Of a stretch of 64,000 bases of DNA, positions 27,019 to 60,034 are shown piece after piece (the stretch's first letter is position 1; every line of letters begins with the position of its first letter). The notes beneath the pieces were generated by a model that was not told the DNA's origin, did no database searches, and saw only the letters and a list, made by a program, of their open reading frames with translations. The DNA is from Candidatus Krumholzibacteriia bacterium (GTDB lineage: Bacteria > Krumholzibacteriota > Krumholzibacteriia > Krumholzibacteriales > Krumholzibacteriaceae). The stretch is from contig JAGLYV010000066.1 in assembly GCA_023131975.1 (NCBI GenBank), forward strand, positions 1-64,000. Direction: 5' to 3'. A program made the position numbers and the translations under genes.

Positions 27019-27234
27019 TTTCTATAGTTCCTTTCGATGTGGGAACGCATGATACGTCTACTACGATTATTAGCTGAAATATCCAGGAATGGTCAAGGCA
27101 TGAAAAAATCCGGTATCCCCGTTTCATCCCTTTTAGGTTGGAAGCTCGGGTTCCTGGTGGTAGACTGCGTGGAATCATGCGTGGGGCGCGAGGCATCGCT
27201 CCTGTTTGTTGGATCCTTCGGGAAAGGACGTCTG

Positions 27235-43168: not shown

Positions 43169-45241
43169 CTACTCCCTGAGATACTCTTCGAACCAGTCAT
43201 ATAGTGTGTTCCACCAGAGCTCGGCGTTCTGGGGCTTCCTTACGAAATGATCCTCATCGGGGAAGAAGAGGAGTTTCGAGGGGACTCCCTGCCGCTGCAG
43301 CGCGGTAAAGAACTCGAGACCCTGGGTATACGGGACCCTGTAGTCATGTTCTCCATGGACTACGAGACAGGGTGTTTTGAATTCCGCGACGAACCTGTGT
43401 GGCGAAAACTTTTCGTAAGTTTCCCTGCTTGTCCATGGCATGCCGCCAAATTCCCATTCCGGGAACCATAACTCCTCGGTGGCTCCGTACATCGATTCGA
43501 GATTGTAGACTCCCGCGTGGGAGACGAGGCATTTGAACCTGTCGTTATGGCCCTCGATCCAGTCGACCATATATCCCCCGTACGATGCTCCGGCCGCGCC
43601 GATCCTGGCCGGATCGATATAGTCAAAGTTTTCTATGATATAGTCCAGTCCGTTCATGATGTCGATGTACGGGGCGCCTCCCCAGTCGCCGCTTATCGCG
43701 TCGGTGAATGCCTGCCCGTATCCGGTGCTGCCGGTAAAGTTGAATGTGGCTACGACATATCCCGGTGACGCGAACATCTGGACGTTCCAGCGGTAGTGGA
43801 AGTTGTCCCCGAACGCTCCCTGCGGGCCGCCGTGTATCAGTACGATGACCGGATATTTTTTGCCTTCTTCGAAGAAGGGAGGTTTGACGATCATTCCGTG
43901 TATTTTCGTCGCTGCTCCATCGAACCAGAATTCTTCCAGCGGGTTCATCGACAGGTGGGCGAGCAGATGGGCGTTTATGTCGGTGAGCCTCGTTATCTTT
44001 TTTCCCTTGATCGTGGATGTGTAGAGGTCGGTCGGTCGATCGACACTCTGTCTGGCGAATACTATCTTCCTGCCGTCAGCAGAGATCCTCAGGTTGTTAT
44101 CATATCCGCCGGTAATCACTTTTTCGGGCGTGGTCCCACGTATGCTTACCCTGCAGATCGAGTAACGTCCCCGATCCTGGGTAGAGAAGAAGATCGAACG
44201 GCTGTCCGGGCTCCAGTCGAAGTTGCCGATACCGTAATCAAAATCTTCCGTAAGATTGAGTGTCTTTTTCTCGCGGCGGTCGTACAGCATCAGGCGATAG
44301 CGGTCAGCCTCGAAGCCGGGTTTCATCTGGGCCCTGTAGGCGATATACCTTCCGTCGGGTGAATAACGGGGATTGTTATCGTTGGACGGGTTTTCCGAAG
44401 TGATCGATGTCGTCGTACCGTCCGTGACCGACCTGATGTAGATGTCGTTGTTTGTAGAAATGGCCACCATCGGATCGGGATTCATGGAATAGCATATCTC
44501 GTTTCCGTCAGGTGAGAAATCGTAATCACGTTCTCCCCCGAGCGATATAGGGGGGACATCCGTCATTCCCCTGTTTATCTCCACGAGTGAAGAACTGTCG
44601 ATATTGGTCAGGAAGAGGTGGTTCCATCGCCCCTCTCTCCAGCTGTTCCAGTGCCGGAACATCAGATGATCGATCAATCGGGCCCTGACCTTGCTGTTTT
44701 TCCATTCATCCAGTTTTTCGGCGTTACAATCCATGTCCTCGCAGTCGGGATATACGCGAGAGGTGAATGCCAGGGTCCTGCCGTCGGGCGACCACAGGGG
44801 ATCGGATACTCCGGTCGGAATGTCTGTGACCCTGCGTGCTTCTCCTCCGCCTGTCGGGATCAACCATATCTGTGAACTGCCTTCGCGGTCGGAAACGAAG
44901 GCCAGCTCTTTCCCGTCGGGCGACCAGCACGGAGCATAGTCGCTTCCCCCGCTCCTGACAAAGTTCCACGGTTGTCCACCATCGGTTCTGACCATGTAGA
45001 TGTCGGTGTTCGACGAATTACTTTCCCTGTCGAACCAGGTCACCGTAAAGGCGACCAGCTTTGCGTCGGGGGATATCTCGAAACTGCCGATCCTTCCAAG
45101 TGAGATCAGGTCATCGAAAGTCAACGCGTGAGGGTCGCCGTTGATCTCTCCATCGTGGGCGCCGGCCGGCATGACCACGGCCACGGCATACAGCGAAAGA
45201 AGGAGCAGCATGACGGGGATTCTCGAGAATAGATATCTCAT
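43169..45241 (-). CDS. S9-family serine peptidase, third paralog (closest to 5389-7515).
   Basis: Signal peptide from ATG 45241 (MRYLFSRIPVMLLLLSLYAVAVVMPAGA) with GGAGG SD. Propeller repeats (SPDAKLVAF, SPDGKELAF, SPDGRTLAF, SPDGRYIAY). Shared motif RVYPDCEDMDC (compare RVYPDCPDLDC in 5389-7515). HGGPQGAF...GASYGGYM (GxSxG)...HGEHDYRVP...DEDHFV. Confidence 0.85.
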   Translation of the reverse strand: MRYLFSRIPVMLLLLSLYAVAVVMPAGAHDGEINGDPHALTFDDLISLGRIGSFEISPDAKLVAFTVTWFDRESNSSNTDIYMVRTDGGQPWNFVRSGGSDYAPCWSPDGKELAFVSDREGSSQIWLIPTGGGEARRVTDIPTGVSDPLWSPDGRTLAFTSRVYPDCEDMDCNAEKLDEWKNSKVRARLIDHLMFRHWNSWREGRWNHLFLTNIDSSSLVEINRGMTDVPPISLGGERDYDFSPDGNEICYSMNPDPMVAISTNNDIYIRSVTDGTTTSITSENPSNDNNPRYSPDGRYIAYRAQMKPGFEADRYRLMLYDRREKKTLNLTEDFDYGIGNFDWSPDSRSIFFSTQDRGRYSICRVSIRGTTPEKVITGGYDNNLRISADGRKIVFARQSVDRPTDLYTSTIKGKKITRLTDINAHLLAHLSMNPLEEFWFDGAATKIHGMIVKPPFFEEGKKYPVIVLIHGGPQGAFGDNFHYRWNVQMFASPGYVVATFNFTGSTGYGQAFTDAISGDWGGAPYIDIMNGLDYIIENFDYIDPARIGAAGASYGGYMVDWIEGHNDRFKCLVSHAGVYNLESMYGATEELWFPEWEFGGMPWTSRETYEKFSPHRFVAEFKTPCLVVHGEHDYRVPYTQGLEFFTALQRQGVPSKLLFFPDEDHFVRKPQNAELWWNTLYDWFEEYLRE

Positions 45242-45452
45242 ATCAGCCTCCTGCGGGTTGGGGTCAGACACTCAGGTCATTGTCAGATGTTTTACAGGGG
45301 TCCATTCTAGGAAAAAGAACCCTTTGTGGCAACTTTAATAAAAAACTGTCGTATATAAACTTGATTCTACAGGATAATTCTGCAAGTCTGAATGACGATC
45401 GTTCAGCCGGCGCGACGCGCCACGCACCATCTGCTTCCCATGGAGGAAGATC

Positions 45453-48902: not shown

Positions 48903-50681
48903 TCAATCCATGCTGTAATGGATAATGGCTCCGTTCGATCCAACGGCATTTATATCAAAGGGCCCGTTTCCCCAGACCGATCTGAGTGTCCCCCCGACGG
49001 GGCTGCTCTGGGGATTCCAGTCCGTACCGTCGAAATGCAGGATGATCCCTTCCTGTCCGACCGCGAAGACGTCGCCAGGGCCGCTTCCCCAGACTCCGTA
49101 AAGCTGTCGGGTCGTGCCACTGTCCATCTTCACCCATTCGACTCCATCGTAATGCAATATGGCCCCCTGGTATCCGACAGCGTAAATATCGTTCCATGCG
49201 GTTCCCCAGATGCCCACGAGGAGGAATGCCGATGGTGCCGCGACCTCATCCCATTCGGTCCCGTTATAATGGATGATGGTCCCCAGGCCCCCGACCGCCC
49301 ATACGTCATCCGGAGCAGCTGCCCACACACCGTGAAGAGACAGTGTCGTGTTGCTTACCATCTCCTCCCAGTCGACTCCGTCATAACGCATGATCCGGCC
49401 TTCCCATCCGACGGCGAAGATCACGTCGCCGCCCGCTCCGGAAAAGGCGTTCAGGTCGATATCGTACGGTATCGTCTCCCTCTGCCACTCCGAACCGGTG
49501 TACTTGAAAAGAGTGCCGTATTCTCCGGATAAAAACACGTTGTTTTCCGCCGTCCCATGGACCGAGTTGAGGTGAAGGCTGGTCGGCCCCGGCCATGTGT
49601 CCCACCCGAACCCGTTGAAATGAATTATGGCTCCGTTTCTGCCGACTGCCCAGGCATCGGTTTCTGAACTGCTCCAGACTCCCGTCAGGTGTTGTGACCT
49701 CGCGTCCGGGATCCCGGTCCAGCTGCTGCCGTTATATTCGATTATCACTCCAAGATACCCGGCCGCGTAGCAGAGGCTGGTGTTGATGGCCGTGATCCCG
49801 TGGAGCCTGTACTCGGTCGCCTGGTTCATCAGGGACCAGGAATCGCCGTCGTAGAAAAGAGTCCTGCCGTGGTCGCAGGACGCGAATACCATATCACTCG
49901 AAAGTCCGCTGATCCCGGTAATATCCTCTGTGAAGAACATTCCCTCATCGATCGAAACGATCATGGGCGACCAGAACGTCCCGTCGTAATGGAGGATGTT
50001 TCCGCTGAGTCCGCCCATGAAGATGTCATCTGCTGAACTTCCCCATATCGTGCGGAACCCCGTGACATTTATCCATTCGATCTCCGTCCAGGACGAGCCG
50101 TCGTAATGGAGGGTCGCGCCGTAGTCTCCGGCGGCGTAGATGTTCGATGACGACGAACCCCAGATCGCGTAGAGATCGTCGGTGACAGATGTGACCACCG
50201 GACTCCAGTCTGTTCCATCATAATGGATCATTGTACCGTAGTAGCCAACGGCATAGACATCGCTGCCGGAGGACCCCCATACGCCGTTCAGGTCCGTCTG
50301 CACCCCCGAATCCATCATGGTCCAGGCGGTCCCGTCATAATGCAGGATCACGCCTGATTCGCACGCCGCGAAGATGTCAGAGCCGGAAAGACCCCAGATC
50401 GAATTGACCTGAAGCTCCGTGCCGGAATCCATGGTGTTCCATGAGGACCCATCGAAATGGATGATGGTGCCATCAGATCCTCCCACGAAAACATCGTTTT
50501 CGGAAGCATGCCATATTGTTCTCAGATTCCTCGAGCTGGAAACCAGGTGCCATGACCCCGTCTGTTCCCCGGGTTGCTCCGGCGCGACCGACGAGTCGCT
50601 TCCGCACGATGTGATGATGAAGGAAAAGGTCATGACTGCCATCAGGGGCAGGATGGATGTCAGATGTCTGCGTTTGAACAT
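48903..50681 (-). CDS. Lipoprotein composed of about 14 tandem ~40-aa repeats (consensus ...G.I(L/I)HYDG..W......(S/T)..L.G(V/I)WGSS..D(V/I)(F/Y)AVG..G...), predicted beta-propeller.
   Basis: Signal peptide plus lipobox (IITSCGS). Repeats visible by eye: TIIHFDGSSW...IWGLSGSDIFAAC, VILHYDGTAW...VWGSSGSDVYAVG, TMIHYDGTDW...IWGSSSSNIYAAG, ATLHYDGSSW, NILHYDGTFW, AILHYDGVEW, IILHFDGTDW and others. Confidence 0.65.
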   Translation of the reverse strand: MFKRRHLTSILPLMAVMTFSFIITSCGSDSSVAPEQPGEQTGSWHLVSSSRNLRTIWHASENDVFVGGSDGTIIHFDGSSWNTMDSGTELQVNSIWGLSGSDIFAACESGVILHYDGTAWTMMDSGVQTDLNGVWGSSGSDVYAVGYYGTMIHYDGTDWSPVVTSVTDDLYAIWGSSSSNIYAAGDYGATLHYDGSSWTEIEWINVTGFRTIWGSSADDIFMGGLSGNILHYDGTFWSPMIVSIDEGMFFTEDITGISGLSSDMVFASCDHGRTLFYDGDSWSLMNQATEYRLHGITAINTSLCYAAGYLGVIIEYNGSSWTGIPDARSQHLTGVWSSSETDAWAVGRNGAIIHFNGFGWDTWPGPTSLHLNSVHGTAENNVFLSGEYGTLFKYTGSEWQRETIPYDIDLNAFSGAGGDVIFAVGWEGRIMRYDGVDWEEMVSNTTLSLHGVWAAAPDDVWAVGGLGTIIHYNGTEWDEVAAPSAFLLVGIWGTAWNDIYAVGYQGAILHYDGVEWVKMDSGTTRQLYGVWGSGPGDVFAVGQEGIILHFDGTDWNPQSSPVGGTLRSVWGNGPFDINAVGSNGAIIHYSMD

Positions 50682-50776: not shown

Positions 50777-51712
50777 TCAGCGGCTGGCGCGGTTACTGGC
50801 GATATACCAGGTCATGCCTTCTTTCGATTCTGTGATGACTTTTTCCGAGGCGATCATCGAATCCATAAGCTTTATGGTCTGCGGGACACTCAGCCCCAGC
50901 GCGGCGCTGATGTCAGCGGCTGTGCAGGGGCGACGCTCTATCATCGACAGGATATTCTCCGAGGCTGCTCCGTCCTCATATTTCGTCTTGCTCGACACGT
51001 CTGCCACGATCTCACATCTGTCGCCGAACATCGCGCGGATCTCCTCCAGGCGTTCGCGTGAAAGGGCACGTGTGTCACCGGTCGTGCCGGGCCTGACTGC
51101 CGTGTTGAGCTGTATCGATGCGATATCAAGGCCGGATACTATGGTCTTCAGCCCCTCCAGGTTTTCCGTGTCAGTGTTATATCCATCCACGAGGAGGATC
51201 TCGAGGCGCACTTCTCCCCGGTATCCTTCGATAAATCTGGTCAGTCCACCGATGACGTTTTTCAGCCTGATCGAGGGGTGAGGCCTGTTTATCTTTTCGA
51301 AACAGGTCTGTATGGCCGCGTCCAGAGAGGGGACCACGATATCTGCCAGTGACAGTTCGTCGCGGACGTCTTCCATCGAGATCAGGGAGCTGTTCGTGAT
51401 GACCGCGACAGGGATTCCCGAGAGGTCCTTCATGCCGCTGATCAGTTCTCCCATCCCGCTGTAGAGAGTCGGCTCGCCGGCTCCCGAAAGGGTGAGTATG
51501 TCCGGGCTTTCCTTTATCTGACCAAGTCGGGTCTTGAGCTCTTCGAGGATGTCGCCGACAGGATAGAAGTTTTTTCTTTCGACCGAGAGATCTGTAGTTC
51601 CTCCGCACTCACAATAAACACAATCGAAGGAGCATGTCTTGTAAGGTATGACGTCCACACCGAGAGACCTGCCCAGTCTCCTCGATGCTACCGGCCCGAA
51701 TATTCTGCCCAT
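50777..51712 (-). CDS. Radical SAM protein with a C-terminal winged-helix-like domain.
   Basis: CSFDCVYCE (Cx3Cx2C) preceded by the conserved GPVASRRLGRSLGVD motif. Glycine-rich SAM motif LTLSGAGEPTL. C-terminal 60 aa helix-turn-helix-like (CTAADISAALGLSVPQTIKLMDSM). Confidence 0.7.
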   Translation of the reverse strand: MGRIFGPVASRRLGRSLGVDVIPYKTCSFDCVYCECGGTTDLSVERKNFYPVGDILEELKTRLGQIKESPDILTLSGAGEPTLYSGMGELISGMKDLSGIPVAVITNSSLISMEDVRDELSLADIVVPSLDAAIQTCFEKINRPHPSIRLKNVIGGLTRFIEGYRGEVRLEILLVDGYNTDTENLEGLKTIVSGLDIASIQLNTAVRPGTTGDTRALSRERLEEIRAMFGDRCEIVADVSSKTKYEDGAASENILSMIERRPCTAADISAALGLSVPQTIKLMDSMIASEKVITESKEGMTWYIASNRASR

Positions 51713-51849
51713 CTCGTACCTTCCGTTTATGGTCTTCTGTCAATGAATCTAATCGAATCATTGCGCCCCTTCCAGAAAAAGTTGTGTGTGTGAGGGTGCA
51801 GGGATGATTTTTTCCGGATATCCTTGAAGATTCTCCGCGAAAGTAACAT

Positions 51850-51869
51850 TATCATCCGGGAGGATGATA
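51850..51869 (+). promoter_or_regulatory. Perfect 8-bp hairpin whose loop is GGGA, lying in the leader of the CoA-transferase gene. It overlaps a 12-codon uORF (51864-51902) that ends 3 nt before the main start at 51905.
   Basis: TATCATCC-GGGA-GGATGATA palindrome at 51850-51869. The uORF reads ATG ATA GTC GGT GAC TTT CAT TTG GGA TCC GGG GGT TGA. Confidence 0.25.
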
Positions 51870-51904
51870 GTCGGTGACTTTCATTTGGGATCCGGGGGTT
51901 GATC

Positions 51905-53767
51905 ATGGAAGAAAGCGCTCTGTATAAGAGCAAAAAGAGGGATATCGATGATATAGTCAGGCTCATCAAGCCTGGCAGCAGAATATTTATCGGATCGGGT
52001 GCGGCCGAGCCCCAGGCCCTGATCAAGATGCTTATTGAGAAGGGCAGGCAGATCGCGGATCACGAGACGATCAACGTGATCGAACTGGGCACTTCTCCAT
52101 ACGCGGAAGCGGTGATGAGCAGGCCTTTCAAGCAGAACGCTTTTTTCATCGGGGCGAATGTAAGGGACGCCGTCAACGAGGGGAGGGCGGAATACACGCC
52201 CATCTTTCTCTCCGAGCTTCCCGACCATATCCGTTCCGGATCGCTCAAGATCGATGTGGCGTTCATACAGGTAGCGCCTCCGGACAGGTATGGCTACTGT
52301 TCTCTTGGAGTATCGGTCGATGTCGTAATGGCAGGAGCGGAAGTGGCTTCTCTGGTCATCGCCGAGATCAACAAGCAGATGCCGAGGACTCTCGGCGACA
52401 GCTTTATTCACATCAAGGATATAGACTATGTGATCGAGAGCGACCTGCCTCTTTTGATGCTCGACCCTCCGGAATCTGACAAAGTCGCGAACAAAATAGG
52501 ACAGAATGTGGCCCGGCTGATCCATGACGGGGCCACCCTGCAGACTGGTATCGGGATGATTCCGAACGCGATCCTGTCCTTTCTCAAGGAAAAGAACGAT
52601 CTCGGGATACACACCGAGATGTTTTCGGACGGGATCATCGACCTGGTCGAGTCGGGAGTGATCACGAACAGGAAGAAGACGATCCACAACGGCAAGATCA
52701 TAGCGACCTTCTGCATGGGTACACAACGCCTGTACGATTTCGTCAACGACAACCCGCTTATCGAATTTCATCCCTGCGATTATACTAACGATCCGTTCGT
52801 TATCGCGCAGAACGAAAAAATGATATCGGTGAACGCGGCCATACAGGTCGATCTCACAGGGCAGGTCTGCGCCGACTCGATAGGCGAGTACTTCTACTCC
52901 GGTATCGGAGGACAGGTCGATTTTGTGAGGGGCGCGGCAAGGTCGAAGGGGGGCAAACCGGTCATCGTGCTTCCGTCGACGGCTCTTGGAGGCGATCGAT
53001 CGAGGATCGTGCCTTATCTCGACCAGGGAGCCGGTGTCGTGACGTCGAGAGGGGACGTCCACTATGTTGCCACAGAATTCGGCATTGTCAACCTTCATGG
53101 CAGGAACCTGAGGGAACGTGCGCTTGCCCTTATCAGTATCGCCCACCCCGATTTTCGCGACGACCTTGTCGATTACGCCAAGAAGCGCCACCTTGTGCAT
53201 CTCGATCAGATGCCTCTTGTCATCCAGGGTAAATATTATCCGGAACAATACGAAGAAGCGGTGGAGTTCGATGGCACACAGATATTTTTCCGGCCGGTCA
53301 AACCGACCGACGAATCGATGCAGAGGGAGTTCTTCTATTCGCTGAGTGACGAATCGGTCTACTATCGGTTCTTCAACAAGATCAAGGCGATGCCGCATGA
53401 GAAGATACAGCCGATGGTAAACATCGACTACCGCGAGGAGATGGCTATCGTAGGGCTTGTCGGTGAAGCGGGAGATGAGGAGATGGTCGCCATCGGGATG
53501 TTCAAGATCGATCCATCTGTCAACGACGCGGAGGTGGCTTTCCTTGTCCGTGACGACTGGCAGAAGAAAGGGATCGGAACCTTCCTGATAAAAAAACTCA
53601 TTGATATCGCTTTGGAAATGGGACTGAAAGGCTTTACTGCCGAAGTCCTTTTACAGAACAAGAAGATGATGTACGTATTCCATAAATGCGGGTTTCCGGT
53701 CAGGACAAAGCTCGAAGACGGAATTTATGTCCTCAGGATAGATTTCAGGGAGGATTCTTCCCTTTGA
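51905..53767 (+). CDS. Acetyl-CoA hydrolase/transferase-family CoA-transferase (Cat/ASCT-like) fused to a C-terminal GNAT acetyltransferase domain.
   Basis: N-terminal about 440 aa with a CoA-transferase family signature (IFIGSGAAEPQALI..., catalytic region GIGGQVDFVRGA with Glu context). C-terminal about 160 aa GNAT (FFRPVKPTDE...VGEAGDEEMVAIGMF..., Q/RxxGxG/A-like KKGIGTFLIKKLIDIA). ATG at 51905 with GGGGG SD; the track lists a TTG at 51899. Confidence 0.75.
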   Translation: MEESALYKSKKRDIDDIVRLIKPGSRIFIGSGAAEPQALIKMLIEKGRQIADHETINVIELGTSPYAEAVMSRPFKQNAFFIGANVRDAVNEGRAEYTPIFLSELPDHIRSGSLKIDVAFIQVAPPDRYGYCSLGVSVDVVMAGAEVASLVIAEINKQMPRTLGDSFIHIKDIDYVIESDLPLLMLDPPESDKVANKIGQNVARLIHDGATLQTGIGMIPNAILSFLKEKNDLGIHTEMFSDGIIDLVESGVITNRKKTIHNGKIIATFCMGTQRLYDFVNDNPLIEFHPCDYTNDPFVIAQNEKMISVNAAIQVDLTGQVCADSIGEYFYSGIGGQVDFVRGAARSKGGKPVIVLPSTALGGDRSRIVPYLDQGAGVVTSRGDVHYVATEFGIVNLHGRNLRERALALISIAHPDFRDDLVDYAKKRHLVHLDQMPLVIQGKYYPEQYEEAVEFDGTQIFFRPVKPTDESMQREFFYSLSDESVYYRFFNKIKAMPHEKIQPMVNIDYREEMAIVGLVGEAGDEEMVAIGMFKIDPSVNDAEVAFLVRDDWQKKGIGTFLIKKLIDIALEMGLKGFTAEVLLQNKKMMYVFHKCGFPVRTKLEDGIYVLRIDFREDSSL

Positions 53768-53806
53768 TAATGGACGGTAGCCGGGATACTGAAAGCTGGA
53801 AAGTAA

Positions 53807-54997
53807 TTGAAAGATGATAAAGATATGAAAAGCATCTCCCCGGCAAGGGACGGTGCCGTGTTCATCAATTCCGATCGATTGGGAGGCTATTCCTTTTCAC
53901 CGGAACATCCTTTCAGGCCCGAGAGAGTGAAGATGGTCCATGAGATGTGTGAAAGGCGGGGGCTGTTTTCGGGCAATAGTGTCAGAGTGGAACAGGTGGA
54001 GGAGATCGAGGATGGCCTGCTGGAAAGATTTCACACGAAAGAGTATATCGATCTGCTCCGCGACGCGGGGAGTGGTGGCGACATTGGTGTCGAGATGCTC
54101 TATCACGGTCTCGGGACGATGGAGAATCCGATATTCAGGGATGTCTATGATTTTGCGGCCCTGTCAGTGACAGCCAGTGTGAGAGGCGCAAGGATCGTGG
54201 CGGAGGAGGGCAGGTGCGCGTTCAATCCGTGCGGTGGATTTCATCATGCCCATCGAGACAGGGCCTCCGGTTTTTGCTATGTAAATGATATTGTGATCGC
54301 CATAGATGAATTGCTCCGCCTCGGCGCCAGAGTCGCTTATCTCGATGTTGATGCTCATCACGGAGACGGGGTCCAGGAAGCTTTTTACGACGACCCCGGA
54401 GTGATGATAGTTTCGCTCCACGAATCGGGCAAGACCCTCTTCCCCTGGGGAGGGTTCGAAAAGGAGTCGGGTGGCCAGGGGGCGGAGGGGTTTAATATAA
54501 ATATCCCCATGCTTTCCGATACGGACGATGAGACATTTCTTTTTCTATTCCGTTCGATCGTCCTGCCGGCATTGAATCTGTTCAGCCCCGATATCGTCGT
54601 TCTCCAGGCTGGTACGGACACATTCGCCACCGACCCGCTCACTCATCTCAAAATGACAAACAACGGCTATATAGAAGCGATCGGATCTCTTCACGCCGCA
54701 TTTCCCCGAATACTCGCGCTGGGTGGGGGAGGCTACAATATGGCCGATGTCGTCAGGGGATGGACATTGCTCTGGGCCGAACTTGCCGGGGTCGAGCTCG
54801 ATAGCGGTTATGGTGGAGCTCTGGGAGGGGTCCTGCTGGGAGACGCTTCTATCGATGGATCCGACCTGAGAGATATGCAGCTGTATACTACCGGGCCCGC
54901 GAAAGAAGCATTGAGGAAACACTCGGAATCACTTGTCGCCAGATTCGAAAAGGAAATCAAGCCACTACTGAGAAAGTCCGGATCCGCCGGTCGCTGA
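53807..54997 (+). CDS. Histone deacetylase-family protein (AcuC/acetoin utilisation-type class I HDAC homolog).
   Basis: GFCYVNDIV, DVDAHHGDGVQEAF, catalytic His pair context (HHAH) and Tyr-containing GGGGYN motif. Confidence 0.8.
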   Translation: MKDDKDMKSISPARDGAVFINSDRLGGYSFSPEHPFRPERVKMVHEMCERRGLFSGNSVRVEQVEEIEDGLLERFHTKEYIDLLRDAGSGGDIGVEMLYHGLGTMENPIFRDVYDFAALSVTASVRGARIVAEEGRCAFNPCGGFHHAHRDRASGFCYVNDIVIAIDELLRLGARVAYLDVDAHHGDGVQEAFYDDPGVMIVSLHESGKTLFPWGGFEKESGGQGAEGFNINIPMLSDTDDETFLFLFRSIVLPALNLFSPDIVVLQAGTDTFATDPLTHLKMTNNGYIEAIGSLHAAFPRILALGGGGYNMADVVRGWTLLWAELAGVELDSGYGGALGGVLLGDASIDGSDLRDMQLYTTGPAKEALRKHSESLVARFEKEIKPLLRKSGSAGR

Positions 54998-55019
54998 AAG
55001 AAAAGGATTGTAACAACTT

Positions 55020-57458
55020 ATGGAAAAGCAGCTGAATATCGTTGAAGCTCAGATCAATTCACTTGTCGGTGCTGTCAGGAAGACGGGGATCGCCAGGAAT
55101 ATCGAGAAGGAACTTCTCGGTGTCCAGAAAAAGCTTCACTATGGAAATATCGAAGATCAGCAGCAGCTTTTCGATCTGCTCTGTCACGTTGTGGGGGTCT
55201 CGAAGCCTCCGTATCTGATAGAAGACTGGGAAGAAGCGTGGGGAAATGTCTTTTCATACCTGGTCCAGATGATCCTCTCCTCCCCGGAGAGGTCGGAGAA
55301 GATCATTTCGCTTCTCTATGGTCCTGAAAATATTCCGGCAATTGTTTCGGAGGAGAATATACTCTGCATCAATCCCGGTTCAACATCGACCAAACTTGGA
55401 CTTTTCTCCGGATTGAAACTGATCGCGGAAGAGGAAGTTCACCTTCCTCCGGATTTTGAGGATACGATCGAGACGAGATCCGATGCCATTATCAAATGGA
55501 TGGAATCACAGGGTGTGGAGAAGGGACAGCTCACCGGCATAGCCTGCCGCGGTGGATTCGTCAGGTCCGTGCCGACCGGCACATACAGGGTCTGTCCCGA
55601 GATGCTGAAGGATCTCGAAAATCCGCGGATCGTTCATGCCTCCAATATGGCGATACCGATCGGACAGAAGATCGTGGAACGATACGCGGGCGACACTGAG
55701 ATCTTCGTCACTACCACCGATCCGGTCGCTTCAGACGAGATGAAGACTTCGGCCAGGCTGACCGGTATCAGGAAGCTTCTCAGGGACGGTTCGGGCGCGC
55801 ACTACCTCAATCATAACGCTGTCCACGGCCTGGTCTGCGCTATTCTGGGTGTTTCGAGGGAGGAGATGACGACGGTCGGCGCGCATATGGGTGGCGGAAT
55901 GTCCGTGGTCAGGCACGAGGGGGGGCAGGCGGGAGACCTGGTCAATGCTTTTTCCGGACTGCCGAGCGCCAACAGGTCGGGTAATATACCTCTCGATGTA
56001 CTCGTCGATGCTCATGACAGGGGCGAGATGAGTATCCCCGAACTCAAGAAATACCTCTTCGGCAGTGGGGGCCTGATCGACCTTGCCGGAACGAATGATT
56101 TCAAGGCGCTCATGCATTTCATGGACTCCGGCGCGGTCGACGTGCAGCACGAGAAGATAGAACTGATCCTCGATTTCATGACGAGCGGGATAGCCGGCGA
56201 GATAATGAAGTTGTCGGCGGTCGAGGGAACCATCGACGTGGTGATGCTGACAGGGGGGCTGGCGAGAAGCACCGAGTTCACAGGTATGATCAGGCGAAAA
56301 CTCCTGCCTTACTTCCCCGTAGTCACTATCCCGGGTTCGATCGAACACGAGGCCATGGTGGCGGGGTTGTTCGGGGCGAAATATAAACCGGCCACACTGA
56401 AGGATTACCCCGGAGAACGCGACAGGCTGAAGAAATTCAGGGCGATGGAGAAAGATCTTATCGATACGGAGATATTCTCTCACCCTCACCTCAGGCGCAA
56501 GGAAAACGCTCCGGTCGGCAGTCTCGACGAACTTATCTATGTCACGAGAGCTATGGTGGCCAGGTACAGGGCTCCCAGAATAGCTATCGTGGGCGCTGAG
56601 AACGAGGACGCCATGGCAGCTGCCAAGCAGGCGAACGAAGAAGGCCTCTATCCTGTGGCCAGGTTCGTCCTCGTCGGTGATTACTACAAGGTCAACCAGA
56701 TCGCATGGGACTACGATGTGAAGGTCGACGGAGACAACTATACGATAGTCGATGCTGACGATCCGGTAGAAAAGGCCCTCTCTCTTCTCGATTCCGGCGC
56801 GGTCGATCTTCTGATGAAGGGTGGAGTGAAGACGTCCGAGATCATGGGCGGCACTCTCCGGTACCTCAAGAAAAACGGGAAGCTGAAAAAAGGTTCCATA
56901 TACAGTCATGTCGGTGTCTTTGAGATACCGAGTTATCCAAAGCTTCTCATGGTGACCGACGCGGCCCTCATACCTGCCCCCAGCCAGAAGATAAAAAAGA
57001 AGATCCTGGAGAACGCCTTGCAGATAGCTTCCTATCTGAATATCGACAAACCTAAAGTGGCTGTCATCTCGGCAGTGGAAATAGCCAGCCCGAGCGTCGA
57101 GTCCTCCATGCTGGCGGCCGAACTCGCGGCAGAATACACCGACAGGGAAGACTGTATCGTCGAGGGGCCCCTTTCACTCGATGTGGCCATGTCCCCCCAG
57201 TCGGCTGCGGAAAAAAACTATAGAGGGCAGATCAGGGGTAACGCGGACATTCTTCTGATGCCCGATATCGAGGCTGGTAATGTCGTATACAAATCGCTGA
57301 CGGTATCGTCCGGGGCATTTCTGGCGGGCGCGATAGTCGGCGGAGGCGTTCCCATCGTCCTTACTTCCAGAGGCGATTCGGCCAGGTCCAAGCTGGCTTC
57401 GATCTGCCTTGCTTCGCTGGTAGCCATGAAACAGGGTGACGTTTCGATGAGTGATTGA
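55020..57458 (+). CDS. Butyrate kinase (Buk) fused to phosphate butyryl/acetyltransferase (Ptb/Pta), with an about 110-aa N-terminal extension.
   Basis: Residues about 112-470 are an ASKHA acyl-kinase (ILCINPGSTSTKLGLF; NHNAVHG; VMLTGGLARS). Residues about 500-812 are a phosphotransacylase (LLMKGGVKTSEIMGG; PDIEAGNVVYK; SRGDSARS). 812 aa single ORF. Confidence 0.75.
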   Translation: MEKQLNIVEAQINSLVGAVRKTGIARNIEKELLGVQKKLHYGNIEDQQQLFDLLCHVVGVSKPPYLIEDWEEAWGNVFSYLVQMILSSPERSEKIISLLYGPENIPAIVSEENILCINPGSTSTKLGLFSGLKLIAEEEVHLPPDFEDTIETRSDAIIKWMESQGVEKGQLTGIACRGGFVRSVPTGTYRVCPEMLKDLENPRIVHASNMAIPIGQKIVERYAGDTEIFVTTTDPVASDEMKTSARLTGIRKLLRDGSGAHYLNHNAVHGLVCAILGVSREEMTTVGAHMGGGMSVVRHEGGQAGDLVNAFSGLPSANRSGNIPLDVLVDAHDRGEMSIPELKKYLFGSGGLIDLAGTNDFKALMHFMDSGAVDVQHEKIELILDFMTSGIAGEIMKLSAVEGTIDVVMLTGGLARSTEFTGMIRRKLLPYFPVVTIPGSIEHEAMVAGLFGAKYKPATLKDYPGERDRLKKFRAMEKDLIDTEIFSHPHLRRKENAPVGSLDELIYVTRAMVARYRAPRIAIVGAENEDAMAAAKQANEEGLYPVARFVLVGDYYKVNQIAWDYDVKVDGDNYTIVDADDPVEKALSLLDSGAVDLLMKGGVKTSEIMGGTLRYLKKNGKLKKGSIYSHVGVFEIPSYPKLLMVTDAALIPAPSQKIKKKILENALQIASYLNIDKPKVAVISAVEIASPSVESSMLAAELAAEYTDREDCIVEGPLSLDVAMSPQSAAEKNYRGQIRGNADILLMPDIEAGNVVYKSLTVSSGAFLAGAIVGGGVPIVLTSRGDSARSKLASICLASLVAMKQGDVSMSD

Positions 57459-57594
57459 TCCCGGGCTATCTGATTTCCCCGTTTTTGTCACACTTTTTGC
57501 CAGTACGTATAGTTTGCACTACGGACACGCCGGCCTGCGCGTGCGTACGGGCTGTGATTACGGTTCCGTCGACTTCGGGCAAGTCTATAATCGG

Positions 57595-57623
57595 TTGCAA
57601 AATATTCGGATATGTGATAAAAT
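57595..57623 (+). promoter_or_regulatory. Candidate sigma70-type promoter (TTGCAA, 17-nt spacer, TAAAAT) about 200 nt upstream of the C1 protease gene.
   Basis: -35 TTGCAA at 57595-57600, 17-nt spacer, -10 TAAAAT at 57618-57623, inside a 360-bp intergenic region. Confidence 0.35.
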
Positions 57624-57817
57624 GCCGCAGAATACGGCACATGGTCTTGTACCCTGCTGTCAGCGTCGCGGATGCTGCCGGTGGGAATTAGCGGATTTGG
57701 ATAATAACAACGACATCATAACCGGGAGGTGAAAGGAAAACTGGCAGTTTGTTTCACTGGAAAGAGAATTTGGGATAAGGGATCGTCTTTTATCATTGTT
57801 TCAAGGAGAGATCGAGA

Positions 57818-60034
57818 ATGAAATCGAAATTACTGCTGCTTGTACTCATTATCTTCACTGCCTCGGCGCTCTTCTCGGGAGCGGCCGACGCGCAGGTACC
57901 GACCAAGGGACCAAAGAATCCCAAGTCGGTTCCGGGCACTGCTTCTGAATTCGGATATATACCGCCACCGGTCGACCTTTCACATATCGTTGTGACACCC
58001 GGCAGGCTGATGGCACCGGCGGCTTCATGGGACTGGCGTTCGACAAGCCAGGTTACCTCGGTGAAGAACCAGAATCCCTACGGGACATGCTGGGCATTCG
58101 GCACCCTGGGTTCCTTCGAGGCTTTTATACTCATCAACGAGTCGATAGCGTATGATTATTCCGAGCATAACATCCAGGGTTGCAATGTCGTTTCGACAGA
58201 CTGCAACGCGGGTGGTAACGCGTGGATGTCGGTGAACTATCTTGCCCTCTCAGGCACGATAGACGAATCATGCGACACCTACCCCGGTACCTGCCCCGCG
58301 GCGACATGCAGCAACCCTGCCTGTTCGTTCGACAAACAGGTAACCGAGTGGAGAGTCATTCCGAATGACGTTACGGCGATCAAGAATGCCGTACAGACCT
58401 ATGGCCCTCTCTATGTATCGATGTACGCCAGTTTCCCCGGTTTCAGTTCCTATGACGGAACGACATGTCTCGTCTATGCCGGAACGGAAGATCCGAATCA
58501 TGCCGTAGTCATCGTCGGATGGGACGACGACATGTGCGGTGGCAACGGTGCCTGGATCGTCAAGAACTCCTGGGGCACGGCCTGGGGTGACAACGGTTAT
58601 TTCTACATCGAGTATGGAAGCGCGAGGATCGGTTCGAACGCGAACGTCATCACCGATTACAAGAATTACGATCCCAACGAGACTATCTACTACTTTGACG
58701 AATATGGCTGGTGGAGCTCCGTCGGATACGGAGACGGCAACGACTGGGGTATGGTCGCCGTCACCCCGACGACCAGTAACGAATATCTCTATAGTGTCGA
58801 TTTCTGGGCCACAGCGGCGAATTGTTCGTACAGCATCTACGTGTACGACACATTCTCCGGCGGCGTTCTTTCGGATGTTCTCGCGGGTCCGATCAGCGGC
58901 ACTGTCAGCGATGCTGGTTACTATTCCATAGATCTTCCGACTCCTCTGCAGGTAACGTCCGGTGACGTGATCTACCTTGCCGCCGACCTGACGACGCCTG
59001 GATACAACTATCCCGTTCCATACGACGACACGGGCCCAATGGAGACGAACAAATGTTTTGTCAGCAATGATGGGACATCCTGGAGCGCCCTCGATAATGG
59101 CAACTATGCGATGGGCGACACAGGTATACGCGGTCGTATAGGACCCGAGATCGTGGCAGGCGAATGTTCGATGGAAGGGGACCCCGCGTTTTTCGTAGGA
59201 TTCCCGGGTGGCACGATCAATGTCATCAAGGGTGAGACATGGTGCTCCGATATCGCCAACACGAACTTCGGCTTCGTTTCCACCATCTGTACCGAAATGG
59301 ACACCTTCTGTATGCACTACGGAGACCTGCTCGGCTGGACGATCAGCTCTGCTGATTTCCCCGAAGGTGCATGTTTCACGGTCAACCCCGGTTCTTACTA
59401 CTGGAACGAAGTCTGTATCTCAGTTCCCTGTGATGCTGTCATCGGAGCGACGAACACGCTGACAGCCTTCATGGCTTTCTGTGATCTGAACGGTGTCTGC
59501 GCACCCGACTGCGGCGATTGTGAAGATCCGAACTGGTACGGGGGCGACCCGTATTATCAGACGACCACACAGGACTTCGAGGTGGTCGAATCTCCACCCG
59601 CACTCTACATCCTGCAGGATACGCTGTACTATGTGGAGCAGGGACAGACAGCCGCTTACATACCGTTCTCGATATGTAACGGAGATCCGTGTGCCGCGGC
59701 CACCGACTATGGTTACAGCATTGTCAGCCTTGGAGTAGTCGGCGCCGCGATCAATCAGAACGGTACTGCTGTCGGTGTCGTGGGAGGCAGCTGCCAGGAC
59801 GTCTACGGTATAATCGATGCCGGTCTTTCCGACGTCTGCGATTATGACACATTGACTATAATCGCCTGGGATGCTGCTACTGGATCGGTCTACGACACAT
59901 GCATTCAGGTCATTCATATTGTCGAGCCGGTTCCGGTACCTCTCTTCAGTACGCCGGTTATCGTGCTACTGGTAATAGCGATGTTCCTTACAGCCGCCAT
60001 CATCATGAAGCGGCGGGCTGCTGAAAGCGCCTGA
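57818..60034 (+). CDS. Secreted papain-like cysteine peptidase (C1 family) with a large C-terminal extension and a C-terminal hydrophobic anchor plus basic tail.
   Basis: Signal peptide. QNPYGTCWAFG (catalytic Cys), NHAVVIVGWDD (His), KNSWGTAWGDNGYF (Asn/Trp). C-terminus ...VEPVPVPLFSTPVIVLLVIAMFLTAAIIMKRRAAESA. GGAG SD before ATG 57818. Confidence 0.8.
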   Translation: MKSKLLLLVLIIFTASALFSGAADAQVPTKGPKNPKSVPGTASEFGYIPPPVDLSHIVVTPGRLMAPAASWDWRSTSQVTSVKNQNPYGTCWAFGTLGSFEAFILINESIAYDYSEHNIQGCNVVSTDCNAGGNAWMSVNYLALSGTIDESCDTYPGTCPAATCSNPACSFDKQVTEWRVIPNDVTAIKNAVQTYGPLYVSMYASFPGFSSYDGTTCLVYAGTEDPNHAVVIVGWDDDMCGGNGAWIVKNSWGTAWGDNGYFYIEYGSARIGSNANVITDYKNYDPNETIYYFDEYGWWSSVGYGDGNDWGMVAVTPTTSNEYLYSVDFWATAANCSYSIYVYDTFSGGVLSDVLAGPISGTVSDAGYYSIDLPTPLQVTSGDVIYLAADLTTPGYNYPVPYDDTGPMETNKCFVSNDGTSWSALDNGNYAMGDTGIRGRIGPEIVAGECSMEGDPAFFVGFPGGTINVIKGETWCSDIANTNFGFVSTICTEMDTFCMHYGDLLGWTISSADFPEGACFTVNPGSYYWNEVCISVPCDAVIGATNTLTAFMAFCDLNGVCAPDCGDCEDPNWYGGDPYYQTTTQDFEVVESPPALYILQDTLYYVEQGQTAAYIPFSICNGDPCAAATDYGYSIVSLGVVGAAINQNGTAVGVVGGSCQDVYGIIDAGLSDVCDYDTLTIIAWDAATGSVYDTCIQVIHIVEPVPVPLFSTPVIVLLVIAMFLTAAIIMKRRAAESA

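Follow-up and report, generated by a model that had tools for sequence, protein, structure and literature searches.

The window analysed here, a 64,000-nucleotide (64-kb) stretch of DNA, contains three co-directional genes on the + strand, with ORFs at 51899/51905-53767, 53807/53825-54997 and 55020-57458. The gaps between them are 57 bp (genes 1 and 2) and 22 bp (genes 2 and 3), with the start of gene 2 taken as ATG 53825 (390 aa), as placed by the gene callers, rather than TTG 53807. Upstream, positions 51713..51904 separate gene 1 from a divergently oriented radical-SAM gene on the - strand (50777-51712). About 8 nt 5' of ATG 51905 is a G-rich stretch, GGGGG, that resembles a Shine-Dalgarno sequence. 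Since a consensus scan of 51713..51904 detected no sigma-70-like site, the operon promoter is a presumed one. An earlier note on this DNA had described three co-directional genes with the domains given below, and every structural detail of that description holds according to the ORF map, Pfam and NCBIfam.

51713..51904, + strand: upstream intergenic region, presumed to hold the operon's promoter and 5' UTR
51905..53194, + strand: gene 1, CoA-transferase domain, residues 1-430 (Pfam, PDB phmmer)
53231..53767, + strand: gene 1, Pat/PatZ-type GNAT, residues ~443-620 and stop (Pfam, NCBIfam, PDB)
53825..54997, + strand: gene 2, Zn-dependent class-I-like HDAC, an AcuC-HDLP-type lysine deacylase (Pfam, PDB)
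55020..55349, + strand: gene 3, private N-terminal five-helix bundle, residues 1-110
55353..56384, + strand: gene 3, butyrate kinase (ASKHA) domain, residues 112-455 (NCBIfam, PDB, motifs)
56385..56558, + strand: gene 3, fusion-specific linker, residues 456-513 (conservation profile, AF2 model)
56559..57458, + strand: gene 3, phosphate butyryltransferase (PTA_PTB), residues 514-812 and stop (Pfam, NCBIfam, PDB)

The window also encodes many peptidases and peptide transporters. This richness fits a fermentation in which the conversion of acyl-CoA to acid yields ATP.

Domains and active-site residues

By sequence, the N-terminal half of gene 1 is a family-I CoA-transferase (CoAT) that resembles AbfT/4-hydroxybutyrate CoA-transferase. 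Pfam placed AcetylCoA_hydro at residues 19-180 (3.6e-30) and AcetylCoA_hyd_C at 272-425 (1.7e-66), and a phmmer search of the PDB matched residues 5-431 to 9vag (2.2e-147), 3eh7 (2e-134) and 3gk7 (4e-116). Of 184 CoAT-GNAT fusions from at least six phyla, 183 retain the catalytic Glu238 (in HTEM), and G-x-G-G-Q varies little or not at all across this set. The NCBIfam profile TIGR03948 (butyryl-CoA:acetate CoA-transferase) scored 318 bits, under its cut-off of 675.

The C-terminal half of gene 1 matched Pfam Acetyltransf_1/3/4 at about residues 460-607 (9e-11) and the NCBIfam profile for the acetyltransferase Pat (7.7e-22). In the PDB it matched E. coli PatZ 9it0 (residues 709-880; 2.8e-26), the S. 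lividans PatA GNAT 4nxy (3e-20) and mycobacterial Pat 4ava/4orf. These matches confirm the GNAT domain that the earlier note had placed here. They do not bear out its parallel with AcuA, as the domain falls in the Pat/PatZ subfamily by NCBIfam and PDB. At the position aligned to E809, the catalytic Glu of PatZ, all 184 CoAT-GNAT fusions have E or D, the QxxGxG CoA-binding motif is kept among them, and the Pat-specific N-terminal YYRFF segment is present in gene 1. The apt comparison is thus with a Pat whose large regulatory domain has been swapped for a CoA-transferase. The regulatory domain of Pat is ADP-forming acyl-CoA-synthetase-like and has been described as inactive (PMC8556138); in PatZ, acetyl-CoA binds this domain and gates the GNAT allosterically (PMC12184503; PMC8556138). 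The CoA-transferase plus GNAT architecture is absent from the five-type acetyltransferase classification. We propose that gene 1 encodes a putative bacterial lysine acyltransferase of a type not classified before, in which a Pat/PatZ-type GNAT is joined to a catalytically intact, AbfT-like partner.

The deacetylase of AcuC/HDAC type expected for gene 2 was borne out by a Hist_deacetyl match in Pfam (3e-78) and by PDB matches to HDAC2 (6.5e-58) and Aquifex HDLP (1.2e-57). When aligned to HDAC2, the protein has the His-His pair (GGFHHA), the catalytic Tyr (GGGGY) and the Zn ligands D-x-H (DVDAHHGDG) and D (AGTD).

Gene 3 carries a butyrate kinase (Buk) and a phosphate butyryltransferase (Ptb) with their catalytic motifs, and NCBIfam and Pfam agree with the reported order of kinase then transacylase in an 812-aa protein with an N-terminal extension of about 110 aa. 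Pfam detected Acetate_kinase (3.4e-10) and PTA_PTB (1.7e-35). The kinase domain scored 239 bits with NF002834 (butyrate kinase, residues 112-452), over the cut-off of 222, and matched TIGR02707 (2e-61) and Thermotoga Buk2 1saz (1e-42); the Buk motifs NPGSTSTK, AHxGGGxS, NRSG, LTGG and PGSIEHE are kept among relatives. The transacylase domain (residues 514-802) matched TIGR02706, phosphate butyryltransferase, with 6.4e-74 (249 bits, under the equivalog cut-off of 410), Ptb 7vg9 with 1.5e-51 and the branched-chain phosphotransacylase 1yco with 5.6e-46, and LTSRGDSxRSK at its C-terminus is invariant. The ~110 N-terminal residues had no NCBIfam match. Residues 452-513, which include the linker, are conserved and ungapped among homologues. 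In the AF2 model a long helix (463-485) is followed by a conserved, low-confidence loop, LRRKExAPxxSLDE, where pLDDT falls below 50 at residues 489-492 and K494 is nearly invariant.

Authenticity of the fusions and linkage of the genes

Neither the CoAT-GNAT nor the Buk-Ptb fusion is an assembly artefact. The earlier note had allowed for a missed stop or frameshift near residues 470-500 of gene 3, and this was excluded. The 812-aa protein is identical on an NCBI MAG contig and on a Logan assembly. Among the 120 clusters listed, out of 263 matches at E<=1e-10, all are Buk-Ptb homologues and 112 are 790-845 aa long with both domains. Buk and Ptb also share a single frame without a stop on 15 further metagenome contigs (L087-L099, L102, L103), with at least 44% identity to the query in the best segment. 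The identical ORF in separate assemblies, the homologue lengths, the ungapped linker and these 15 contigs argue that the 812-aa ORF is not the product of a missed stop. The non-fused relatives in the metagenome scan were always separate genes, arranged as ptb>buk, buk>ptb or buk>ptb>buk. The CoA-transferase-GNAT fusion proved equally genuine, as the two domains form a single ORF in 73/74 related loci. We found no description of either fusion in the literature searched; the earlier note had likewise remarked that it knew of no description of such a unit.

The neighbourhoods of 74 CoAT-GNAT loci were surveyed. The commonest neighbours are Buk-Ptb (23 loci) and HDAC (20 loci), and the linkage is kept with shuffled gene order in Krumholzibacteriota/Latescibacterota and in Myxococcota-like MAGs. 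The order is CoAT-GNAT>HDAC>BukPtb in Krumholzibacteriota, BukPtb>CoAT-GNAT>HDAC in Myxococcota-like MAGs and ACS>BukPtb>CoAT-GNAT in loci outside these two groups; the triad recurs on the metagenome contigs L087 (where the contig cuts the CoAT end), L088 and L090. In further lineages, acetyl-CoA synthetases, either ADP-forming (ACD) or AMP-forming (ACS), stand in for Buk-Ptb as the partner. An ACD with the SHTG His motif adjoins CoAT-GNAT in 7 loci, including one arranged as ACD>HDAC>CoAT-GNAT (L071) and one in which the ACD is flanked by two CoAT-GNAT paralogues (L060). An AMP-forming ACS lies directly upstream of the fused Buk-Ptb in 11/13 non-Krumholzi loci, and in L006 and L004 the two genes overlap or are separated by 4 nt. 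All of these ACS proteins contain the motif P[KR]Txx[ST]GK, and a PxxxxGK-type site is where Pat acetylates Acs, at K609 (PMC12184503). No ACS gene was found in the 64-kb window, which leaves the operon without the canonical Pat target; among the neighbours, ACS alone has a recognised Pat target motif.

The earlier note had viewed the genes as a self-contained unit; their linkage stands, but CoAT-GNAT and Buk-Ptb often occur separately. CoAT-GNAT is far more widespread than Buk-Ptb and is common in Planctomycetota without it, where most loci lack all of these partners within 10 kb. On one contig of Krumholzi type (L018) the HDAC is present, but the 1.9 kb downstream contains no Buk-Ptb. The link is frequent rather than obligate, since L095-L099 and L102 have the fused Buk-Ptb but no CoAT-GNAT; in these loci Buk-Ptb stands either with only an AMP-forming ACS (L095, L097, L098, L102) or alone (L096, L099). 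These loci are phylogenetically non-independent and represent about three or four arrangements, so the counts overstate the number of independent events.

Proposed role and alternatives

We consider it probable that the operon couples a lysine-acylation writer and eraser to enzymes that interconvert acyl-CoA and acid + ATP. It would act where short-chain acyl-CoAs and acids are interconverted, in a peptide-degrading anaerobe of the Krumholzibacteriota. Gene 3 is predicted to catalyse acyl-CoA + Pi + ADP <=> acid + CoA + ATP, probably with butyryl, branched-chain or acetyl substrates, and the labile acyl-phosphate may pass between the fused Buk and Ptb active sites; we infer this direction, substrate range and channelling. 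By analogy with PatZ, the CoA-transferase half of gene 1 may have a double role, equilibrating CoA among short-chain acids and signalling the acyl-CoA state to the fused GNAT, in the way that acetyl-CoA bound to the regulatory domain of PatZ gates the GNAT there. With gene 2 as an NAD-independent, AcuC/HDLP-type zinc eraser, the pair would tune the enzymes that make and spend acyl-CoA through reversible lysine acylation. The predicted target is the PxxxxGK lysine of AMP-forming ACS where a cluster has one, and Buk-Ptb or ACD may themselves be acylated. The linkage of the three genes across phyla suggests that they include a bacterial protein acetyltransferase of a class not yet described, coupled to short-chain acid metabolism that yields ATP.

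Alternatively, the CoA-transferase half could be an acyl-CoA sensor only, as in a type-III-like Pat, and carry no metabolic flux. Gene 1 would then amount to a Pat paralogue with another kind of sensor, an ACS-directed regulator located near an ordinary Ptb-Buk pathway. In every characterised bacterial GNAT acetyltransferase with more than one domain, the additional domain is regulatory. The ACD-like domain of Pat has reportedly lost its catalytic activity (PMC8556138), allostery is described for PatZ (PMC12184503), and the score of 318 versus 675 bits is under the equivalog cut-off. However, a pure ligand sensor is expected to lose its catalytic residues, as reported for Pat. Here Glu238 is kept in 183/184 fusions and G-x-G-G-Q is (nearly) invariant across at least six phyla, with a full-length match to solved 4-hydroxybutyrate CoA-transferases (E = 2e-147). 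We regard the sensor-only account as unlikely.

Less likely still, the CoA-transferase may make acyl-CoA from acetyl-CoA and an acid such as butyrate, 4-hydroxybutyrate, propionate, lactate or similar, for the GNAT to install as a non-acetyl acylation that the HDAC removes. Pat-type GNATs characterised so far use mainly acetyl-CoA or propionyl-CoA, which argues against this pathway. In its favour, both active sites of gene 1 are intact by sequence and permanently fused, and the module associates with butyrate-type, not acetate-type, enzymes. GNATs can also use other acyl-CoAs: YiaC reportedly transfers lactyl groups to lysine, and lactoyl-CoA is known to be formed by CoA-transferases (PMC12146230). 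If so, the module would mark proteins according to which short-chain acids the environment supplies.

It is improbable that the GNAT and HDAC instead (de)acylate a polyamine or amino compound in a purely metabolic operon. Many GNATs and some bacterial HDAC-family acetylpolyamine amidohydrolases do act on small amines, and the GNAT has weak NCBIfam matches to PaiA and ArsN1 (E ~1e-3). Against this, 9/10 PDB matches of the GNAT are protein lysine acetyltransferases (PatZ, PatA, mycobacterial Pat, Sulfolobus Pat) or their GNAT domains, and the tenth, phosphinothricin-acetyltransferase-like, is the weakest (E = 4e-4). The GNAT also bears the Pat-specific YYRFF, the HDAC is nearest class-I HDAC2 and HDLP, and ACS genes whose products carry the Pat target motif recur in the neighbourhood. 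Mis-assembled fusions, or genes that are merely neighbours in one lineage, are effectively refuted: every sequence stems from a MAG or a metagenome contig and one phylum supplies many of the related loci, but independent assemblies yield the same ORFs, the fusions are kept in hundreds of homologues, and the linkage survives changes of gene order between phyla and the swapping of a partner for analogous enzymes.

Comparison with known systems

The 4-hydroxybutyrate CoA-transferase AbfT/Cat2 family (3gk7, 3eh7, 9vag) shares full-length homology, the catalytic Glu in HTEM and GxGG with gene 1, which differs in its C-terminal Pat-type GNAT and its sub-cut-off TIGR03948 score. The clostridial ptb-buk operon encodes the same two enzyme families, presumably with the same acyl-CoA <-> acyl-phosphate <-> acid + ATP chemistry, but as two genes, whereas gene 3 is one polypeptide, kinase then transacylase, with an N-terminal bundle and a conserved linker of ~60 aa. 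ACD resembles fused Ptb-Buk in its net reaction (acyl-CoA + ADP + Pi <-> acid + ATP + CoA) and takes its position beside CoAT-GNAT, with or without HDAC, in 7 loci; it is non-homologous to Buk-Ptb and absent from this window.

Like this operon, Bacillus subtilis AcuABC/AcsA places genes for an acetyltransferase and an AcuC-type HDAC together in an operon beside acyl-CoA-forming metabolism, and AcuC, like gene 2 as predicted from its sequence, is a zinc-dependent, NAD-independent eraser (PMC8556138). Its GNAT is AcuA-type, whereas that of gene 1 is Pat-type. In this window acsA is not adjacent and Buk-Ptb is the partner; no AcuB (CBS/ACT) gene was found here with Pfam and NCBIfam profiles.

The type I enzyme Pat/PatZ (YfiQ) of Salmonella enterica/E. 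coli shares its GNAT subfamily with gene 1 (E809-equivalent Glu, QxxGxG, YYRFF). In both, a large domain derived from an enzyme that interconverts acyl-CoA and acid precedes the C-terminal GNAT, and in loci related to this operon an AMP-forming ACS with PxxxxGK lies nearby. The partner domain in Pat is NDP-forming acyl-CoA-synthetase-like and ~700 aa long, whereas in gene 1 it is a family-I CoA-transferase of ~430 aa. The CoA-transferase half of gene 1 retains its catalytic residues, whereas the partner domain of Pat has been described as lacking activity (PMC8556138).

Organization of the operon and its protein domains

The three genes form a co-directional cluster with intergenic gaps of 57 bp between genes 1 and 2 and 22 bp between genes 2 and 3. 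Their positions in the ORF map are as follows.

51905-53767, + strand: gene 1, CoAT-GNAT, a CoA-transferase joined to a GNAT domain (620 aa)
53825-54997, + strand: gene 2, an HDAC/AcuC-type deacetylase (390 aa)
55020-57458, + strand: gene 3, Buk-Ptb, butyrate kinase followed by phosphotransbutyrylase (812 aa)

Upstream of the cluster lies a divergent radical-SAM gene; downstream, a 359-bp gap separates it from a C1 peptidase gene. Scanning the operon for consensus promoters and terminators gave match counts not above those in shuffled sequence. The downstream gap (57459-57817) contains two sigma-70-like matches, which presumably serve the C1-peptidase/lectin gene. An ORF of 93 aa (57451-57732, + strand) overlaps the end of gene 3; it has no family match, is not called by gene callers and is probably spurious. 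Upstream of the operon, a 592-aa ORF (48903-50681, - strand) matches nothing significantly in Pfam or NCBIfam, and a homologue of about 590 aa occupies the same position in four Krumholzibacteriota loci (L007, L008, L021 and L023). Every domain named in the earlier note was recovered in these genes by Pfam and NCBIfam.

The N-terminal half of gene 1 is a CoA-transferase. The Pfam domains AcetylCoA_hydro and AcetylCoA_hyd_C are both present and span this entire half, and residues 5-431 match solved 4-hydroxybutyrate CoA-transferases over the whole length of the latter (E = 2e-147 to 4e-115). In an alignment of CoAT-GNAT fusion proteins, the catalytic Glu238 (HTEM) is retained in 183 of 184 sequences and the G-x-G-G-Q motif shows little or no variation, with G333, G335 and G336 found in all 184. 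The score against TIGR03948, the model for butyryl-CoA:acetate CoA-transferase, is 317.9 bits against a cut-off of 674.8, so the protein is not assigned at the equivalog level. An NCBI entry attributed to Ca. Krumholzibacteria is 100% identical to the 620-aa protein.

The earlier note assigned the C-terminal half to the GNAT acetyltransferases. Pfam, NCBIfam and PDB matches rule out the possibility that it is anything other than a GNAT. The NCBIfam and PDB matches also led us to drop the suggestion that it is equivalent to AcuA, as the closest families are the catalytic domains of Pat, PatZ and PatA. Residues about 443-614 match E. coli PatZ (9it0, 2.8e-26) and Streptomyces PatA (4nxy, 3.3e-20) in a phmmer search of the PDB, with further matches to mycobacterial Pat (4ava/4orf, about 1e-11) and Sulfolobus Pat. 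Of the NCBIfam GNAT models, acetyltransferase Pat fits best (7.7e-22), with a score below the full-length cut-off because the match is restricted to the GNAT part. E543 aligns to E809 of PatZ, the catalytic glutamate of that enzyme (PMC12184503), and all 184 fusions have E or D at this position; Q553, G556 and G558 of the QxxGxG CoA-binding motif are kept in 180-184 of the 184. Since the key residues of both halves are conserved across these fusions, the CoA-transferase and the GNAT both look catalytically competent. [quoted passage not shown]

Gene 2 is nearest to HDAC2 and Aquifex HDLP (about 1e-57; 1.2e-57 for HDLP). Alignment to HDAC2 located the His-His pair, the D-H-D zinc ligands and the catalytic Tyr, supporting its assignment as an AcuC-type deacetylase.

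In gene 3, residues 112-452 constitute the butyrate kinase, which scores 239.3 bits against NF002834 (cut-off 222) in NCBIfam and matches Buk2 (1saz) at 1e-42. Its substrate specificity is uncertain because the equivalog model TIGR02707 gives 207.7 bits, under the cut-off of 289.1. The butyrate kinase motifs NPGSTSTK, AHxGGGxS and LTGG are conserved. Residues 514-802 form a probable phosphate butyryltransferase. They score above the cut-off for Pfam PTA_PTB (123 bits; cut-off 24) and have Ptb 7vg9 as their best PDB match (1.5e-51), but with TIGR02706 (6e-74) they reach 248.7 bits, under the equivalog cut-off of 410.5. The ASKHA and Pta/Ptb motifs are invariant over 58-112 Buk-Ptb homologues. 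In the AF2 model (pLDDT 87), the N-terminal 100 residues fold confidently into a five-helix bundle and residues 463-485 into a long, confident linker helix. We considered a bromodomain for the N-terminal bundle and rejected it, as there is no significant similarity to the left-handed four-helix fold with ZA/BC loops. The loop between the two enzymes (56460-56531, residues about 481-504) carries a conserved motif, LRRKExAPxxSLDE, although it is modeled with low confidence and predicted as disordered (pLDDT<50 at 489-492). K494 within this loop is nearly invariant in 58 fusions, and the loop is a candidate for a fusion-specific regulatory or acylation site.

We explored the possibility that the Buk-Ptb fusion was produced by assembly, for instance through a missed stop or a frameshift. 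No such error was found. The identical 812-aa protein is encoded on DAOVNZ010000008 (GCA_030629965.1) and in the Logan assembly of run SRR13892599. Among the matches listed, all 120 clusters (of 263 at E<=1e-10) are homologous and 112 of the 120 have both domains and a length of 790-845 aa, the named sources being Krumholzibacteriota, Latescibacterota and Myxococcota. These independent assemblies and near full-length homologues, together with the conserved linker and the confident AF2 helix, rule out an artifact. In a metagenome scan, both domains of the gene 3 clade were fused in 15/15 loci where they occurred, with at least 44% identity of the best segment to the query; in more distant relatives they were always separate genes, in the order ptb>buk, buk>ptb or buk>ptb>buk. 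The last arrangement (L104-L109, L113, L115, L116, L128, L130, L132, L137 and other loci) places two butyrate kinase paralogues around ptb, unlike the classical ptb>buk operon. The CoA-transferase and GNAT likewise share a single ORF in 73 of 74 loci; in L075, where they do not, the frame changes inside the CoA-transferase domain. Both fusions are therefore genuine.

Distribution and neighborhood of CoAT-GNAT

One genome per GTDB species was scanned with a GNAT-tail alignment of six sequences, and 80 loci were obtained; the CoAT-GNAT tally also takes in a few loci fetched by exact-protein look-up. The fusion occurs in Krumholzibacteriota, Latescibacterota, many Planctomycetota (Phycisphaerae) and MAGs labeled Myxococcota, Bdellovibrio or 'Deltaproteobacteria', as well as in Acidobacteriota (Pyrinomonadaceae), Chloroflexota (Dehalococcoidia), Calditrichaceae, Syntrophorhabdaceae and the methanogenic archaea Methanoliparum and Methanotrichaceae. 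Against 1.84 billion cluster representatives, the GNAT-tail profile found 944 at E<=1e-30, covering every architecture of Pat-type GNAT; among the best 150, about 45 share the size and layout of CoAT-GNAT (600-660 aa), and the others are mostly fragments. Scan loci L080-L086 encode classical ACD-like+GNAT Pat proteins rather than CoAT-GNAT. These proteins, from Saprospiraceae, Cyclobacteriaceae, Afipia and Gottesmanbacteria MAGs, still have SHTG[ST]L, the histidine motif found in active ADP-forming acyl-CoA synthetases; reviews describe the Pat regulatory domain as being without the catalytic His.

Clustering of all ORFs within 5 kb identified two dominant neighbors of CoAT-GNAT, namely the Buk-Ptb fusion, seen in 23 loci, and the HDAC, seen in 20. 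In Krumholzibacteriota and Latescibacterota the order is CoAT-GNAT>HDAC>BukPtb, with 16 full triads and two more cut by contig ends; one locus (L018) is an exception without Buk-Ptb. The order is BukPtb>CoAT-GNAT>HDAC in L025-L028 and ACS>BukPtb>CoAT-GNAT in L004, L006, L092 and L103. The cluster in L025-L028, from the Myxococcota-, Bdellovibrio- or 'Deltaproteobacteria'-labeled MAGs, is preceded by genes for a Roadblock/LC7 protein and an Arf-like small GTPase, an MglB/MglA-like pair.

Some loci have different or additional partners. The net reaction of ACD, the ADP-forming acetyl-CoA synthetase, equals that of Ptb plus Buk. A gene for ACD with the SHTG histidine motif, revealed by alignment as the catalytic SHTGSL, adjoins CoAT-GNAT in seven loci. 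One of these, from an uncultured-bacterium MAG, has the order ACD>HDAC>CoAT-GNAT (L071:389-5705), which is the triad of the window with a non-homologous partner in place of Buk-Ptb. In another, from a Phycisphaerae MAG, the ACD gene lies between two CoAT-GNAT paralogues (L060:8711-14695). Also in Phycisphaerae MAGs, CoAT-GNAT adjoins a 1008-aa protein (L035:5443-8469, also L042 and L055) in which a pyruvate:ferredoxin oxidoreductase gamma-type domain (PF01558) is fused to ACD (ATP-grasp_5 + CoA_binding_2 + Succ_CoA_lig). A gene for ACS, the AMP-forming synthetase, is directly upstream of fused Buk-Ptb in 11/13 non-Krumholzi loci, overlapping it by 8 nt in L006 and lying 4 nt away in L004. Every ACS so placed has the motif P[KR]Txx[ST]GK, the site that Pat-type enzymes acetylate (PMC12184503). 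Through this association in related loci, CoAT-GNAT is a candidate for acetylating a protein lysine such as that of ACS. Neither a CBS/ACT protein nor an ACS was found among the window neighbors scanned.

The association of CoAT-GNAT with these partners is frequent, not obligate. Most Planctomycetota loci with CoAT-GNAT have none of these partners within 10 kb. CoAT-GNAT is in turn missing from some loci with fused Buk-Ptb. The proposal in the earlier note of an undescribed, self-contained and acetylation-regulated unit survives in part: the genes do form a module, and the literature searched describes neither fusion, whereas the GNAT is Pat-type and not AcuA-like, the module is not self-contained, and its regulation by acetylation stays a prediction.

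Possible function of the module

Because the linkage is kept through rearrangement and one partner is swapped for analogous enzymes, we argue that CoAT-GNAT, often with an HDAC as eraser, has a functional tie to the enzymes of ATP-linked interconversion between short-chain acyl-CoA and acid. On the analogy of Pat/PatZ and ACS, the most economical mechanism would be that these enzymes are reversibly acylated on lysine as the acyl-CoA pool changes. The CoA-transferase half would then act as catalyst and sensor at once. Buk-Ptb, as a fusion, would have ACD-like net chemistry, possibly with channeling of the acyl-phosphate.

A more specific proposal is that CoAT-GNAT is a sixth, self-feeding class of prokaryotic lysine acyltransferase. 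The CoA-transferase would make one particular short-chain acyl-CoA (C3-C4, hydroxy-acyl) from ambient acids and pass it to the fused GNAT, such that the identity and abundance of fermentation acids would be written on Buk-Ptb, ACD and ACS, the enzymes gaining ATP from acyl-CoA, and erased by the HDAC. Fusing Buk to Ptb would in addition sequester acyl-phosphate, a non-enzymatic acyl donor. We regard this self-feeding scheme as unlikely.

The window has an unusual wealth of genes for protein degradation and peptide uptake, with S9 and C1 peptidases together with OPT peptide and AbgT transporters.

5389-7515, 24919-27018, 43169-45271, 57818-60034, 27037-29187 and 35866-37404: protein degradation and peptide uptake genes (three PD40+S9 peptidases, a C1 peptidase with a lectin-like domain, an OPT oligopeptide transporter and an AbgT transporter)

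Such a gene content fits an organism that lives by fermenting peptides and would cash in (branched) short-chain acyl-CoAs for ATP. Also in the window, a 573-aa ORF (19103-20824, + strand) has an unusual combination of a weak AMP-binding-enzyme match (residues 201-313, 2.3e-5) and a C-terminal PanD (aspartate 1-decarboxylase) domain (residues 453-560, 1.7e-26).

Relation to known systems

By its domain architecture, CoAT-GNAT is a new class of Pat-like acyltransferase, and here it occurs together with a natural fusion of Buk and Ptb. The literature searched describes neither fusion and has nothing relevant on a Krumholzibacteriota butyrate kinase or on CoA-transferase-GNAT architectures; public annotations of these proteins go no further than 'GNAT family N-acetyltransferase', 'acyl-CoA hydrolase/GNAT' or 'butyrate kinase'. 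The locus is an instance of a widespread sixth acetyltransferase architecture, one in which the sensor domain is apparently a working enzyme. Its recurrent partners Buk-Ptb, ACD and ACS represent the three known routes of acyl-CoA/acid/ATP interconversion, and this leads to a concrete and testable prediction on the steps under reversible-acylation control in anaerobic fermenters and syntrophs. Metabolic engineers working with Ptb-Buk as a module that cleaves thioesters and yields ATP may find the natural Buk-Ptb fusion of interest as well.

Bacterial lysine acetyltransferases are grouped into five architectural types, I-V, none with a CoA-transferase, according to a 2021 review of these types (PMC8556138) and a 2025 paper on the structure of PatZ (PMC12184503). 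CoAT-GNAT shares its GNAT subfamily and its logic with Pat/PatZ and differs in the N-terminal domain: the large domain of Pat is described as binding acetyl-CoA but inactive (PMC8556138), while that of gene 1 is apparently active. The gene 1 domain has the full-length Pfam assignment, catalytic Glu and GxGG oxyanion motif of a family I CoA-transferase of the AbfT/Cat2 kind. With Bacillus AcuABC the window has in common the type of eraser and the operon logic; however, AcuABC comprises a stand-alone AcuA-type GNAT, an AcuB with CBS and ACT domains and an adjoining acsA, whereas the GNAT of the window is fused and Pat-type and AcuB is absent. The clostridial ptb-buk operon encodes the same enzymes as gene 3, but as unfused proteins and usually in the opposite order.
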